Positions 59,754-63,567 of a stretch of 64,000 bases of DNA are shown in pieces. Position numbers and translations under genes: made by a program. Within the stretch, counting starts at the first letter, position 1, and each line of letters begins with the position of its first letter. The stretch comes from a virus. Lineage: Duplodnaviria > Caudoviricetes. The notes below the pieces were generated by a model. That model did no database searches. It was not told the DNA's origin and saw nothing but the letters and a program-made list of their open reading frames with translations. The stretch lies in the IMG/VR virus record IMGVR_UViG_3300031414_000007, positions 32,001 to 96,000 of that record; one strand, 5' to 3'.

Positions 59754-60176
59754 TTACTGTGCCCTCATTGCAAACGTAATTGATTGTTTGTCTTCGAGCT
59801 TAGGACAACGCCATGTGATTACACACACGTAGGTCTGCTCGTATTGATCGCTCATGGTGCAGGCTGTCTTGACGCTGGTTACGTCCTGCGTGAGACCGTT
59901 GTATGGGTCTTCTAGGGCAAGACGCATGTACGTTGCAATCCAGTCAGCCGTTGTTTGATCGAACGGCTCAAACAGATACTGATATACATCGGCACCGAAG
60001 TTCTCACGCCATTTGCGAGACTTCTTACGCGTACCGATTACCATCAGTATCTTCTGGACGATGCTGTCCATGTTCTGCACGTTATCGCGCGGTTCAAGTT
60101 GAATCCACGCATTAATATCACAATAGATGCGCTCGCTAATCGGCACATCTATCAGACGAACTCCGATTCCAGCCAT
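59754..60176 (-). CDS. baseplate wedge subunit, gp25-like
   Basis: SIVQKILMVIGT-K-SR-WR-NFG-DV-QYLFEP-D. Confidence 0.88.
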   Translation of the reverse strand: MAGIGVRLIDVPISERIYCDINAWIQLEPRDNVQNMDSIVQKILMVIGTRKKSRKWRENFGADVYQYLFEPFDQTTADWIATYMRLALEDPYNGLTQDVTSVKTACTMSDQYEQTYVCVITWRCPKLEDKQSITFAMRAQ

Positions 60177-60466
60177 TAGCCAAATCTCACATTAGAACTA
60201 CCACTCGAAGCTGTGTCGCCGCAACTGTTAGCGTCACCAGCACGTTGCGCAGGCTTACCGTTGACACGCACACTAGAACTTGAAGTAGCTTTCCCGACAT
60301 GAGGAGGCTTCTTTGGTTTCCAGTGAGGACGATAACTATCGCCTTGACGAACACTCCCTTTTCCATTCACAAGCACGTTAGAAGATGCCTGAGCAGGGAC
60401 AACAGGAAAATAACCATTGTGTCCAGTAGACAGATCTGTGCCTAAACGAATAGCTTTCTGACCCAT
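60176..60466 (-). CDS. PAAR-repeat tail spike tip protein
   Basis: LSTGH...ASSNVLVNG...RQGD...H...VNGKPAQRAGD...CG...GSSNV. Confidence 0.9.
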   Translation of the reverse strand: MGQKAIRLGTDLSTGHNGYFPVVPAQASSNVLVNGKGSVRQGDSYRPHWKPKKPPHVGKATSSSSVRVNGKPAQRAGDANSCGDTASSGSSNVRFG

Positions 60467-60489
60467 GTTAATTCTCCTCTGTTAGGCAC

Positions 60490-60495
60490 AAATTA
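60490..60495 (-). promoter_or_regulatory. TAATTT late-promoter-like motif upstream of PAAR
   Basis: Same hexamer starts 28-41 nt upstream of several structural gene starts, usually just after a hairpin. Confidence 0.55.
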
Positions 60496-60511
60496 GCTTG
60501 TTATGCAGTAG

Positions 60512-60546
60512 AAACGAAAACGGGCAACCCGAAGGCCGCCCGTTTT
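60512..60546 (-). terminator. intrinsic terminator closing the large RNA
   Basis: GGGCGGCC-TTCG-GGTTGCCC-GTTTTCGTTT; G-U pairs valid only on - strand. Confidence 0.85.
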
Positions 60547-60576
60547 CTTTGCTTGGATTTGTGTCGCTTAACTCCC

Positions 60577-60735
60577 TCACACCCGAAGCGAGTGCTCGGT
60601 AGCCGAAGCCACTAAGCCGGAGTTAATGGCCGAGAGTGAAGCCGCACGGCGCGGCAACAGCATGTGACTCTCGGGACCAGATAGCAAGCGACCAAGCATC
60701 GCAATTGCTATCAACGACACGAAGAACAAAATCAT
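60577..60735 (-). CDS. 52-aa sORF with hydrophobic N-terminus inside the structured RNA
   Basis: AGGAG-caaac-ATG; MILFFVSLIAIAMLGRLLSGPESH...HSLRV. Confidence 0.45.
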   Translation of the reverse strand: MILFFVSLIAIAMLGRLLSGPESHMLLPRRAASLSAINSGLVASATEHSLRV

Positions 60736-61791
60736 GTTTGCTCCTGTGTCTCTACTGTAAGGTAAAACATTTGCAAATGTCGATCAAGTTACTTCAAGTT
60801 GCCCTTCGCCCAACTTCACTAGGGTTTCAACTCTCTTTCTCTCGTTACCGCCTGGGTTGCGGAGACCGCGCACAAGAACAACGCTTCAACGATACGTGGG
60901 CAGGAAGACACGTACCGTATTCACATCGCTCAAGCGAAGGAGGTTACCCATCGGTGATCTGCGGTGGTTAATACACTCTTTAACAATCGCTCTTGTTGTG
61001 CATTAGATCGTGGTAGGAACGCGATTGACCGCTAACAAGTCCTATACGATATTTCACTACCCGAGAATGGGTATCAGCTATGGCAGCACGTCAACAGCAG
61101 CGGGGCAGCGGACACACTCCATTAAGCATTGTTAAGGGCAATGCTCAACAGGCTGTGAACAGCTTTGACCAAATGCAGAGTCGCTCGTCGCCCGACTTCA
61201 CTTGAGTATCTCGTCTGCACTCTTTTACTCCCTGAATACCGTACAAGGAAGACGGCACCCATGAGGGTCTGCGGATGTTTATCACATTAAGACTCTAGCC
61301 AACTTAATCCCGTACGCAGTGTGTTGAGTCGTCCGCTGGATGACACACTACATACCCCCTCACGTTCGTGCATAAGTGGGATATAGCTGGTGGAAGGTTG
61401 TCATGAAGATTGCATCGCCTGGAGGCCTGCCGTTCTTCCCAATGCACACACGGTGAAAGGCATATGTGCATCAGGCAGCGTAGCTGCAAACTGCTATCCC
61501 GATAAGAGGGGCCACAACGTTGAGAGTACGTTCCGCCTGTCTTACGCGCCTAGAGGCAACTGCCGTGCCATGTCTGAAAAGAATGAAAAACGCTGGGCCT
61601 TGTGAGCGTCAGCAGCAGAGCAGCAGTCTATCGCGTGGGTGCTGGGGTTAATCCTCACGATTACAGAGCATCACACTCTAACCAGCTGGAGGCTTGCCTA
61701 CTGTGGAACGCAGCGACAAGTTTACAGTCAAACAACGTCCGCTAAGTACGCCATCTGACTGGGACAAGTTGATATTACTATCTGCAATTTT

Positions 61792-61803
61792 TATTTACAG
61801 ATT
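61792..61803 (-). promoter_or_regulatory. AATCTGTAAATA motif, copy 4 (putative promoter of the large RNA)
   Basis: Exact reverse-complement match directly after the stop codon of 61804-63567. Confidence 0.7.
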
Positions 61804-63567
61804 TTAGAACGCCTTACGCTCAATATTTGAATAAAGAGTATCGTAAGGTTCTGAGTACAGTTCAGGTCCGCGTTGTGCGCGAATCGTCACGTAGCCTGTG
61901 TGACGGTTGAACGCTGTGATTTCGACAGTCGGCTGTTTAGGCTTGATAGTCGCATAAATCGGAGCATTCAACGTTGGCTCGTCTGTCTGAATCTTATTTA
62001 CAGATTGCAGTGCAGCGCCAGAGATAGCAGGCAGATTAAAACGCAGTTCAGCACGTTTCTGGCCGAATGCCGCGCGAATCATACCGTTCTCCAACTCTAC
62101 ACCGTTCTGCTTGAGATATGCAGCGATGCGACGTCCGATACCAGTAAGCTGATCGCGAGTGCGCGGGTCAAACGTGCCTTCGAAGCTGATTGCTTCTGCT
62201 GGCTGACGTACAGACAAGTGCAGGCCCGTGTTGAAATAGCCTTCGGTAAGCAGACGCAGGATTTCTTTCACGACCTCTTTGGTGTTCGTCTTGATAGCAG
62301 CGATACGCAGCTCAGGAACGTCCACTTTAATCGGGTCACGAAGCTCGGTCTGGTTGTCCATATAGCCGAGTGAGATATGCTTCGCATTGGCATACGTGTG
62401 TTGCAGCACACCAGTCGCGCGAATCAATACAGAGCCACCTTTTGCGAGGTCATAAAGTTCATCGCTGGTGGTTGTGCTGAACAGGTAATAGTCCGTAGGT
62501 ACGGCCATGCGATTAACAGCTTCAATCGCTTTGGTCTGAGCTTCTTTGACAGTTGAGCCAAAGACTACGCGACTACGATTCGGCTGGGCAGCAGATACAG
62601 GGAAAAACGCACCATAGACAACGCTAACGTTTTTCTTAATCGGACGCTCAGACTGAATCTTCTTACCGCCAGGCAGAGACGGTAGCTTAACGCCCACCAG
62701 CTTACCTTTGACGATAGCTTTGTTCTCTTTTACCGGCTTGAGGCTGTCAATGAGTTTCGCCAGATCAGCACCGCTAAGAATCTTCTCCAGCGGAACAGCG
62801 AGGTTCTGCGGCAGATAGTGTTTCTTGCGGAACATATAGATAACGGTGTCTTTCTTGATCTGCACTGGCGTAGCCATGTTGCGACCAACAACACCGACCG
62901 GCTGGAACGTGTTTGCTTTGTCATCACCGATAGAGCCGAACTGCTTAGTGAACTCAGTCTGGCCGATGATGTTAGCAGCACGTAAATGGCCACGAATGAT
63001 GAACACGATTTTCGGGTCATCTTTCATGCGCAACTCGTAGCGGTCACGGTTCAGATAAACCATGCTGTACTTGTCGCCTTTCTCCAGCTCCAGATCGTAC
63101 TCGTCGTTAGCGTCATCAACAACGACTTTCTTACCTACGTAGGTACCGTAAGTGCGCGGGCCAGCAGACTCAGAAGCAATCTGCAATGCTTTGCCACTGT
63201 TAGACAGAGAGGCAGCGAAGTCCATAACAGCGGGCATCAGGTCTAAAGACGATGCTACAGCGTATGGCTTGCGCTTCTCACCAAGATGCAAATGAACAGC
63301 GCTACTGCTGGACATGAATACGGTTGTGCCTACATCTTCGTGTGTACCAGCGAAGTGCATACCGCTAATACGTTCGATGATGTTTGCGTTGAGCGATTGG
63401 AAGTTTACTTCGCTGCCTGCGGTGAAGTCATAAATTTCACCGTTACGCCACGCATAGGCAACGTTGTTTGAGCTTAGACCCACGAACGCATCACCCAACT
63501 GACGCACGGTCAATGGCATGATGCTCAGGTCACGAATAATCGAGGACTGCTTTTGAATGAGGTTCAT
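61804..63567 (-). CDS. hypothetical protein, likely virion-associated
   Basis: 587-aa ORF, AGGGA RBS, in structural block. Confidence 0.78.
   Translation of the reverse strand: MNLIQKQSSIIRDLSIMPLTVRQLGDAFVGLSSNNVAYAWRNGEIYDFTAGSEVNFQSLNANIIERISGMHFAGTHEDVGTTVFMSSSSAVHLHLGEKRKPYAVASSLDLMPAVMDFAASLSNSGKALQIASESAGPRTYGTYVGKKVVVDDANDEYDLELEKGDKYSMVYLNRDRYELRMKDDPKIVFIIRGHLRAANIIGQTEFTKQFGSIGDDKANTFQPVGVVGRNMATPVQIKKDTVIYMFRKKHYLPQNLAVPLEKILSGADLAKLIDSLKPVKENKAIVKGKLVGVKLPSLPGGKKIQSERPIKKNVSVVYGAFFPVSAAQPNRSRVVFGSTVKEAQTKAIEAVNRMAVPTDYYLFSTTTSDELYDLAKGGSVLIRATGVLQHTYANAKHISLGYMDNQTELRDPIKVDVPELRIAAIKTNTKEVVKEILRLLTEGYFNTGLHLSVRQPAEAISFEGTFDPRTRDQLTGIGRRIAAYLKQNGVELENGMIRAAFGQKRAELRFNLPAISGAALQSVNKIQTDEPTLNAPIYATIKPKQPTVEITAFNRHTGYVTIRAQRGPELYSEPYDTLYSNIERKAF

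Follow-up and report, generated by a model that had tools for sequence, protein, structure and literature searches.

Very few RNAs above 500 nt with ornate folds supported by covariation are known outside ribosomes and introns, and each one found so far (GOLLD, ROOL, OLE, raiA) has raised open questions about what large RNAs can do. GOLLD (RF01998) and ROOL (RF03087) are very large, multi-domain, pseudoknotted and strongly covarying RNAs of phages and prophages, of unknown biochemical function. They measure roughly 800 and 580 nt, respectively. Cryo-EM unexpectedly showed that both form RNA-only homo-oligomeric complexes (PMC12286853). Dual-function RNAs such as Staphylococcus RNAIII/hld and Escherichia coli SgrS/SgrT combine a structured RNA with a short ORF for a small, often membrane-active, peptide. 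In type I toxin mRNAs (hok-like), extensive fold-back structure controls a small hydrophobic peptide. The phi29 prohead RNA (pRNA), of about 170 nt, has a role in virion morphogenesis.

The locus described here shares with GOLLD and ROOL a phage origin, multiple domains, pseudoknots and strong covariation, but no sequence or structure match to them was found. It is longer (about 1050 nt non-coding and about 1270 nt in all), is found in Gram-negative jumbo phages in a tail/baseplate gene block rather than near tRNA genes, and contains an internal duplication and an embedded small ORF. It is more than twice the size of RNAIII, its predicted peptide is unrelated to those of the dual-function RNAs, and there is no evidence of base-pairing regulation; no complementary target for the conserved AAAUCCAAGC was found in the phage genome. 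As in the hok-like mRNAs, an ORF of about 50 codons for a hydrophobic peptide is embedded in long-range pairings that include a helix between coding sequence and 3' end. However, no antisense RNA gene is evident, the leader is about 1 kb and internally duplicated, and the Shine–Dalgarno sequence is not obviously sequestered. The locus lies among structural genes, which recalls pRNA, but pRNA matches nothing here and no link to packaging is shown.

Locus, signals and homologues

The window (a 64 000-nucleotide stretch, positions 32 001 to 96 000 of IMG/VR record IMGVR_UViG_3300031414_000007) derives from an Alexandravirus-like Erwinia jumbo phage (99.4% to pEa_SNUABM_30). A first-pass annotation of the sequence had noted about 1.3 kb without a credible long ORF between structural genes, bounded by a promoter motif and a UUCG terminator on the minus strand and containing several long helices. 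This observation was confirmed. The longest ORF in the gap is 111 aa, on the wrong strand, and no ORF except one of 52 codons is conserved among 17 homologues. The features are listed in Table 1.

Table 1. Positions of the features within the window.
Position	Strand	Feature	Support
61804-63567	-	587-aa ORF	
60467-61803	-	Interval without a conserved long ORF	
61792-61803	-	Promoter-like motif AATCTGTAAATA, directly after the stop codon of the 587-aa gene	Exact match; invariant in all homologues; at the same place in Yoloswag, SNUABM_5, JA11 and JA29
61771-61790	-	5' leader AAAUUGCAGAUAGUAAUAUC; transcription start presumed to lie here	Invariant or nearly so across three genera
61725-61761	-	5' hairpin with a conserved CUUAGCGG-type loop and a variable, compensating stem	Alignment; single-sequence fold
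61356-61692	-	Domain I, closed by helix 61692-61689/61359-61356	RNAalifold
61636-61615/61568-61544	-	20-bp helix of domain I	10 compensatory pairs
61542-61529/61519-61505	-	Helix of domain I	RNAalifold
61478-61463/61450-61435	-	Hairpin 61478-61435 of domain I, 15 bp	4 compensatory pairs
61167-61354	-	Unit A: hairpin 61354-61313 with an invariant loop, PK-A and module A (61285-61167) with the 17-nt loop AAGUGAAGUCGGGCGAC	Covariation
61354-61345/61322-61313	-	Helix of unit A, 10 bp	9 compensatory pairs
61336-61332/61275-61271	-	Pseudoknot PK-A (GCGGA with UCCGC)	Compensates as GCGGG/CCCGC in Snuvirus
61122-61163	-	Two hairpins, the second (61148-61122) with the conserved loop UGCCCUUAACA	
61148-61140/61130-61122	-	Helix of the second hairpin, 9 bp	6 compensatory pairs
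61121-61115/60624-60618	-	Long-range helix, 7 bp; 3' arm inside the small ORF	Compensated in Sasquatchvirus
60797-61050	-	Unit B, a paralogue of unit A: hairpin 61050-61007, PK-B and module B (60975-60797) with inserted hairpins and the loop UAGUGAAGUUGGGCGAA	Module A HMM hits module B (E down to 2.6e-7); covariance model R1 also hits it (E 5.9e-6)
61032-61028/60965-60961	-	Pseudoknot PK-B (GCGGU with ACCGC)	Four compensating variants
60949-60942/60856-60847	-	Long-range pairing of the G residues of GG-GUAA-CC	Covariation
60918-60909/60898-60889	-	Helix, 9 bp	6 compensatory pairs
60741-60745	-	Shine–Dalgarno sequence AGGAG, 5 nt (CAAAC) upstream of the ATG of the small ORF	Read from the sequence; conserved in most homologues
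60577-60735	-	Small ORF, 52 codons (47-53 in relatives); N-terminal part a hydrophobic helix; 3' half overlaid by hairpins 60674-60630, 60611-60600 and 60592-60576	Only ORF conserved in all 17 homologues; peptide alignment; hairpins covary
60697-60692/60556-60551	-	GCUUGG (codons 13-15 of the small ORF), complementary to CCAAGC within the invariant AAAUCCAAGC	Both sides invariant, including synonymous sites; extended to 8 bp by an insertion in Alexandra-type phages
60510-60547	-	Intrinsic terminator: 14-bp stem, UUCG tetraloop and U tract (60547-60516)	Conserved with G-C/G-U changes
60176-60466	-	PAAR gene	

ATCTGTAAATA occurs six times in the window against 0.8 expected, and it occurs 14 times exactly in the 210-kb genome against 0 for the reversed control. 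Four other copies in the window sit just upstream of genes. A transcript would be expected to start a few nucleotides after TGTAAATA. No copy of the motif lies between the terminator and PAAR; the conserved spacer there was tested as a repeated promoter motif and is not repeated.

A homologous unit of 1205-1306 nt occupies the same locus, between the 587-aa gene and the PAAR gene, in 45 phage records of three genera (Alexandravirus, Snuvirus and Sasquatchvirus) plus two uncultured lineages. Scans of IMG/VR mostly returned the same cultured phages, plus one full-length UViG and one truncated new lineage. Module homologues occur in Yoloswag and SNUABM_5 (E 8e-5 and 3e-6), whereas no other copies of module A were found in the phage genome. 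The family is confined to one clade of Erwinia/Dickeya jumbo phages. An exact-match pattern for the 5' leader found nothing in the metagenome collection, and a domain-I pattern found nothing in the metagenome or bacterial-genome collections, although the latter fits only the window-type spacing and is weak evidence of absence. Logan and ENA contigs carrying the small ORF are near-identical to known phages and their ends do not coincide with the RNA ends; they add neither diversity nor evidence of a transcript.

The window was searched with cmscan against all 4227 Rfam 15 families and gave no hits at gathering score, including to GOLLD, ROOL, OLE, HEARO, raiA and the introns. For the region at E<=10 only STnc320, snoU82P and MicX were returned, chance-level hits to unrelated small RNAs at 14-17 bits, far below their cut-offs. 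ARAGORN found no tRNA or tmRNA. In literature searches on these phages and on structured phage RNAs no description of this RNA was found; the large phage csRNA survey reports motifs averaging 67 nt.

Covariation, strand and the small ORF

The consensus structure was determined with RNAalifold from 17 distinct homologues (54-93% identity) in about eight lineages. 265 pairs were found, 123 of them with compensatory double changes. In 40 column-shuffled alignments the energy was -325±9 against -571 real (z = -28.5), with 39±7 compensatory pairs (maximum 54) against 143 real. As a coding control, the neighbouring gene in the same 12 phages gave 36 of 242 compensatory pairs against 94 of 230 for the RNA. 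The sense structure is 94.1% canonical and drops to 81.7% when mirrored onto the other strand, with 782 G-U cells; this asymmetry fixes the minus strand. RNA identity is 0.55-0.83 against 0.35-0.64 at fourfold sites of the flanking genes, a sign of purifying selection. The single-sequence folding z-score (-3.3) is not clearly better than that of a neighbouring mRNA (-2.5). An all-pairs G-test with APC was dominated by phylogenetic signal and was abandoned as a significance test; only six of the top 25 pairs are structural, though about 0.01 would be expected by chance.

All four long helices named in the first-pass annotation were recovered and covary. The GUGGC-UUCG-GCUAC hairpin (60611-60600) also covaries, although its loop is not kept as UUCG. 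Two details of that annotation did not hold: the GG-GUAA-CC hairpin read as a GNRA loop is not conserved, and the proposed 3' multibranch domain (60733-60556) is also a conserved small ORF with a Shine–Dalgarno sequence. To the earlier reading were added the two paralogous units, each with a covarying pseudoknot, and the long-range helices.

The small ORF is open in all 17 homologues and in the more distant phages Yoloswag, SNUABM_5, JA11 and JA29; it is found in six genera. Indels are in multiples of three. Codon periodicity is seen in the hydrophobic part only (14/7/13 variable columns), where it exceeds all 137 non-coding windows. By these measures it is a short ORF under protein-level selection within the structured unit. 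The ORF is annotated as a CDS in some relatives.

Interpretation

The interpretation given in the first-pass annotation, a new large phage ncRNA class, was partly supported. The locus is a single, very large, strand-specific and evolutionarily conserved RNA structure with its own promoter-like motif and terminator, and over about 1050 nt it has the characters of a large ornate structured ncRNA: no conserved ORF, many compensated helices, two covarying pseudoknots and long invariant loops. It is not purely non-coding, however, as the last ~230 nt carry the small ORF, which is built into the fold. The roles that had been proposed (RNA scaffold or cage, protein sponge, anti-defence decoy, assembly factor) remain speculation; repeated conserved loops exist that would suit a GOLLD/ROOL-like cage, but no intermolecular covariation can be separated from intramolecular.

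With high confidence, we identify the gap as a conserved large structured RNA unit with an embedded small ORF. In this view it is one transcription unit on the minus strand, about 61785 to 60512 and roughly 1.27 kb, the product of which is selected chiefly as a folded RNA. The first ~1050 nt form a 5' hairpin, a large closed domain and two paralogous units, each built from a hairpin whose loop forms a pseudoknot with a downstream CCGC strand and each ending in a conserved 17-nt loop. The 3' half of the ORF, for a small hydrophobic (probably membrane) peptide, is tied into the fold by hairpins and by long-range helices to the non-coding body and to the 3' UTR. This would make it a very large dual-function RNA, most likely a new family of ornate structured phage RNA with an embedded small gene. 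The conservation, the strand, the secondary structure and pseudoknots (by covariation), the internal duplication, the conservation of the small ORF and the absence from Rfam were established by the analysis, while transcription as one molecule from motif to terminator (judged from sequence signals only), translation of the small ORF and any activity of the RNA are inferred. A mechanism that we regard as about as likely as not is that the non-coding body works as an RNA in its own right, its rigid pseudo-dimeric fold presenting repeated invariant loops (two WAGUGAWGUYGGGCGAM loops and three YAGCGG loops) to a partner, which could be a protein, another RNA or further copies of itself. The co-transcribed peptide would be made from the same, structurally gated, message.

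The main alternative is a giant cis-acting 5' leader that only controls the stability, translation or transcription read-through of what follows, namely the small ORF and, through the terminator, the PAAR/baseplate operon. In every phage the RNA is the 5' part of a putative message: the structured region lies directly downstream of the promoter motif and upstream of coding sequence, which is the small ORF here and three small genes in Yoloswag. The small ORF is physically built into the fold, downstream genes may depend on read-through as no copy of the promoter motif lies between the terminator and PAAR, and an anti-SD-like CCUCCUU lies in module B. On the other hand, 1 kb with two pseudoknotted paralogous units and many invariant loops is far more than any known leader needs, and the Shine–Dalgarno sequence and AUG sit in a loop in the consensus structure rather than being sequestered. 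In Yoloswag the small ORF has its own promoter copy and is separated from the RNA by three genes, so the two can be uncoupled. A pure cis-leader is considered unlikely, though not negligible, and a working RNA is favoured.

A cluster of independent short elements (small RNAs, small genes, regulatory hairpins) is improbable. Some relatives annotate short ORFs inside the region, the 3' end (an A-rich single strand plus terminator) resembles a 3'-derived sRNA and processing cannot be excluded, but none of the annotated internal ORFs is conserved, covarying helices spanning 330-500 nt join the parts, there is only one promoter motif and one terminator, and length is kept. A decayed gene or a DNA-level element (replication origin, packaging site) is very unlikely. 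There is no long ORF and more distant relatives carry small genes in the same interval, yet compensatory changes that keep Watson–Crick and G-U pairs on one strand only cannot be explained at the DNA level or by decay, and identity is well above that of fourfold sites. There is no GC-skew shift, and nothing found suggests an origin: no repeat arrays were noticed on inspection of the alignments. It is equally unlikely that the unit is a diverged member of a known large family (GOLLD, ROOL, OLE, HEARO, group I or II intron, RNase P, rRNA fragment): its size and phage origin recall GOLLD and ROOL, and GAUCACC...CCUCCUU in module B recalls the 16S 3' end, but the Rfam search argues against this, and the element lies between complete genes in all relatives, is not inserted in a gene and contains no intron-type ORF.

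The finding also corrects annotation, as several GenBank records place spurious ORFs in this region and most miss the conserved small ORF. The unit sits in cultivable, genetically accessible jumbo phages of a well studied plant-pathogen host, and its function is therefore open to direct experiment. It matches no described RNA family and would be among the largest structured RNAs known from a phage. A more far-reaching reading, which we hold only tentatively, is that it is the founding member of a new class of giant ornate RNA, the largest structured nonribosomal RNA known from a phage. Its pseudo-dimeric, doubly pseudoknotted body would assemble into a defined RNP or RNA-only higher-order particle acting during infection of Erwinia or Dickeya, for instance in baseplate or tail morphogenesis or as a decoy against a host defence, while the same transcript would deliver a small membrane peptide.

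Genomic setting and homologues of the interval

The window was assigned by blastn to an Erwinia jumbo phage that is 99.4% identical over this region to pEa_SNUABM_30, genus Alexandravirus. The genome record is 210.5 kb, of which the window represents bases 32001-96000. All genes around the interval lie on the minus strand, in the order 136-aa ORF, 587-aa protein, the gap, PAAR, gp25-like baseplate protein, wedge subunit and 1511-aa tail protein. The conserved 587-aa protein contains a KMPT-N domain (PF20294, E 4e-18), has otherwise no known function and is restricted to this phage group. Within the gap the longest ORF was 111 aa, on the plus strand, and nothing longer than 61 aa was found on the gene strand. 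The positions of the features are collected in the table below.

The motif AATCTGTAAATA follows immediately after the TAA of the 587-aa gene. ATCTGTAAATA was found six times in the window with up to one mismatch, against 0.8 expected, and 14 times exactly in the genome, against none for the reversed control. Four other copies in the window lie 20-60 nt upstream of start codons; the genes concerned include a ParB-like gene and an NTP-pyrophosphohydrolase gene, so we refer to the sequence as a phage promoter-type motif, without implying a temporal class. A second exact copy of ATCTGTAAATA, inside the 587-aa ORF and about 200 nt upstream of the copy that heads the RNA, may be an internal promoter or a chance copy. 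At the other end, a 14-bp stem with a UUCG loop and a U tract forms the predicted terminator. Base composition showed no skew change. The 46-nt spacer between the terminator and the PAAR start (…AACAAGCUAAUUUGUGCCUAACAGAGGAGAAU…) is almost invariant across three genera but is not a repeated motif in the window; it may be a unique promoter or operator, or a translation element for the baseplate operon. In AD1, SNUABM_3 and SNUABM_33 an extra insertion of ~120 nt with an ORF of ~40 codons, which the window lacks, is present between the terminator and PAAR.

Positions of the features in the window and in the records of related phages (records with the prefix L)
Feature	Position	Strand	Remarks
587-aa gene	61804-63567	minus	KMPT-N domain
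Second exact copy of ATCTGTAAATA	61995-62005	minus	Inside the 587-aa ORF
Gap	60467-61803		
AATCTGTAAATA	61803-61792		Promoter-type motif
5' hairpin	61761-61725		CUUAGCGG loop
Helix closing domain I	61692-61689/61359-61356		
CCUCC in domain I	61692-61688		
Unit A	61354-61167		
Two hairpins	61163-61122		
Long-range helix	61121-61115/60624-60618		7 bp
Unit B	61050-60797		
GCAGAUCACC…AACCUCCUUCGC	60938-60960	minus	In module B
Pairing of the G residues of the proposed GNRA hairpin	60954-60952 region with 60856-60847		GC/AU and CG/GC/UA exchanges
Small ORF	60735-60577		Alignment columns 1197-1359
ACAAAUCCAAGC	60551-60570	minus	Invariant, single-stranded
Terminator	60547-60516		14-bp stem
Terminator-PAAR spacer	60467-60512	minus	46 nt
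PAAR	60176-60466	minus	
Insertion with ORF of ~40 codons (AD1, SNUABM_3, SNUABM_33)	L005:1068-1236, L007:1066-1233 and L027:520-648		~120 nt
Annotated hypothetical proteins inside the RNA	L010:1901-2465, L002:1884-2033, L003:1723-1884, L006:2280-2423	either	Not conserved
Small ORF with its own motif copy and leader (Yoloswag)	L028:1450-1499		ATCTGTAAATAAGAATTGTAG

The region was found by blastn in 45 phage records, in 33 of them over more than 80% of its length. In Alexandravirus, Snuvirus and Sasquatchvirus the interval between PAAR and the 587-aa gene is always 1.27-1.46 kb, and the distance from motif to terminator is 1205-1306 nt. 17 non-identical copies, including one IMG/VR UViG, were aligned (1429 columns, pairwise identity 54-93%). 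A further uncultured lineage (L059), with a 587-aa protein 63% identical to that of the window, carries the first ~860 nt of the RNA at 49-56% identity.

Every ORF of at least 40 codons on both strands of each homologue was mapped onto the alignment, and only one was conserved, namely the small ORF. The hypothetical proteins that GenBank and RefSeq records of several relatives annotate inside the region are not shared and are probably mis-annotations, whereas the conserved small ORF is annotated in only a few records. About 1,050 nt are therefore non-coding in every phage. These nucleotides are nevertheless under purifying selection, with an identity to the window of 0.55-0.83, compared with 0.35-0.64 at four-fold degenerate sites of the two flanking genes in the same phage pairs.

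Covariation and architecture of the predicted RNA

The consensus structure was predicted with RNAalifold. 265 pairs were obtained, 123 of which have at least one sequence with both sides changed and the pair kept. Many show three to five pair types; for example, UA, CG, GC, UG and AU were observed at column pair 198/268. The sense structure has 94.1% canonical cells and the same structure mirrored onto the other strand has 81.7%, because 782 G-U cells become A-C. The ribosum-scored consensus energy was -571 for the sense strand and -471 for the antisense strand. As a control, 40 alignments were shuffled by column within classes of gap pattern and conservation, which retains the phylogeny; these gave an energy of -325±9 (z = -28.5) and 39±7 pairs with compensatory change (maximum 54), against 143 for the real alignment. 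The last 900 nt of the neighbouring 587-aa gene in the same 12 phages, used as a coding control, gave 36 compensatory pairs of 242, against 94 of 230 for the RNA. Two tests did not discriminate: single-sequence folding gave z = -3.3 for the RNA and -2.5 for the coding control, and a naive G-test was dominated by clade structure.

The four long helices proposed in the first-pass annotation were all recovered with covariation, as was its GUGGC...GCUAC hairpin. The GNRA hairpin that it had also proposed was not recovered, its G residues being paired elsewhere. An invariant 5' leader is followed by the 5' hairpin, domain I, unit A, the two hairpins, unit B, the small-ORF domain and the terminator. 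Units A and B are paralogues: an HMM of module A, the module of unit A, hit module B in the same molecules (E down to 2.6e-7), and a covariance model of module A (R1) hit module B in the window at E = 5.9e-6. No other copy was found in the window's genome.

In each unit the loop of the leading hairpin pairs with the CCGC strand that opens the module, forming a pseudoknot. The pseudoknot of unit A (PK-A) is GCGGA/UCCGC and becomes GCGGG/CCCGC in Snuvirus. That of unit B (PK-B) is GCGGU/ACCGC and becomes GCGGG/CCCGC in SNUABM_3 and L059, GCAGGG/CCCUGC in the Alexandra type and GCUGGUG/CACCAGC in Snuvirus. Each module ends in a hairpin with a nearly invariant 17-nt loop, WAGUGAWGUYGGGCGAM. In module B, GCAGAUCACC…AACCUCCUUCGC contains GAUCACC and CCUCCUU, which recall the 3' end (anti-Shine-Dalgarno region) of 16S rRNA; CCUCC also occurs in domain I.

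The centre of the RNA is tied to the small ORF by the long-range helix, which is compensated in Sasquatchvirus. GCUUGG in codons 13-15 of the small ORF is invariant even at synonymous sites and is complementary to the invariant CCAAGC just before the terminator; in Alexandra-type phages an insertion lengthens this helix to 8 bp. The invariant ACAAAUCCAAGC, followed by an A-rich stretch and the terminator, looks like the 3' end of an Hfq-type sRNA. No complementary target for it was found in the phage genome, although it can pair with codons 13-15.

The small ORF and more distant phages

The small ORF is preceded by AGGAG with a 5-nt spacer (CAAAC) before the ATG and encodes 47-53 residues, a conserved hydrophobic N-terminus (LFFVSLIAIAMLGRLLS) being followed by a variable tail. 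Indels inside the ORF are multiples of three (3, 15 and 3 nt), apart from a 1-nt insertion near the 3' end in Snuvirus that shifts its frame there. In the hydrophobic part, variable columns by codon position number 14, 7 and 13, the pattern expected for interchange among NUN codons, and the ratio of third-position variability to that of positions 1 and 2 combined exceeds that of all 137 non-coding windows. In the C-terminal part there is no periodicity (23, 25 and 21 variable columns), and its alternative endings (HSLRV or HLHRA) are simply the two states of a compensating helix, CUCGC/GUGAG against CUUGC/GUAAG. Recognizable homologues of the peptide were found in Yoloswag (gp109), SNUABM_5 (gp115), JA11 and JA29. 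We conclude that the ORF is very probably a real gene, the 3' half of which is dominated by RNA-level constraints.

In Yoloswagvirus, Rivsvirus and Salmondvirus the same two flanking genes are 1.7-2.4 kb apart. The same promoter motif follows the 587-aa gene, an unannotated stretch of 620-740 nt comes next and small genes intervene before the small ORF. In Yoloswag the small ORF has its own copy of the motif plus a similar leader (ATCTGTAAATAAGAATTGTAG), and three small genes separate it from the module-A-like RNA, which suggests that the fused arrangement in the window arose by loss or gain of those genes. A module-A-like element was detected with R1 in the unannotated stretch of SNUABM_5 (E 3e-6) and Yoloswag (E 8e-5), and weakly in JA29 (E 0.2); these share AGUGNNUAACNNCCGCAG. 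The RNA therefore has shorter relatives, and it can be uncoupled from the small ORF. Pattern scans of the JGI metagenome and GTDB genome collections, for which the patterns were narrow, returned nothing.

Comparison with described RNAs and interpretation

No Rfam 15 family matched, no tRNA or tmRNA was present and no description of this RNA was found in full-text literature searches. In kind it resembles GOLLD and ROOL, which are large ornate phage RNAs shown to form RNA-only complexes (PMC12286853), but it does not match their family models and is longer. In carrying a small hydrophobic-peptide ORF it resembles dual-function RNAs (RNAIII/hld, SgrS/SgrT) and, loosely, hok-type mRNAs.

The observation made in the first-pass annotation, a gap of about 1.3 kb without a credible long ORF, headed by the motif and closed by the terminator, was confirmed. 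Its interpretation as a new, very large structured phage RNA was supported in part, two corrections being required: a small gene is embedded in the RNA and the GNRA loop is not supported. What the analysis establishes is one strand-specific, conserved, pseudoknotted and internally duplicated fold of about 1.05 kb, joined to a small ORF and bracketed by a promoter-type motif and a terminator. That it is one transcript, that the small ORF is translated and that the body has any activity of its own are inferred from the sequence alone.

The main alternative, which we consider possible but less likely, is a purely cis-acting leader that would govern the small ORF and read-through into the PAAR/baseplate operon, for which no promoter motif of its own was found. 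Decay of a gene, a role at the DNA level and membership of a known family are each very unlikely. In the reading that we prefer, although it is held at no better than even confidence, the body of this RNA of cultivable phages functions as an RNA and would present its repeated invariant loops to a partner or to other copies of itself, with the peptide made from the same message.
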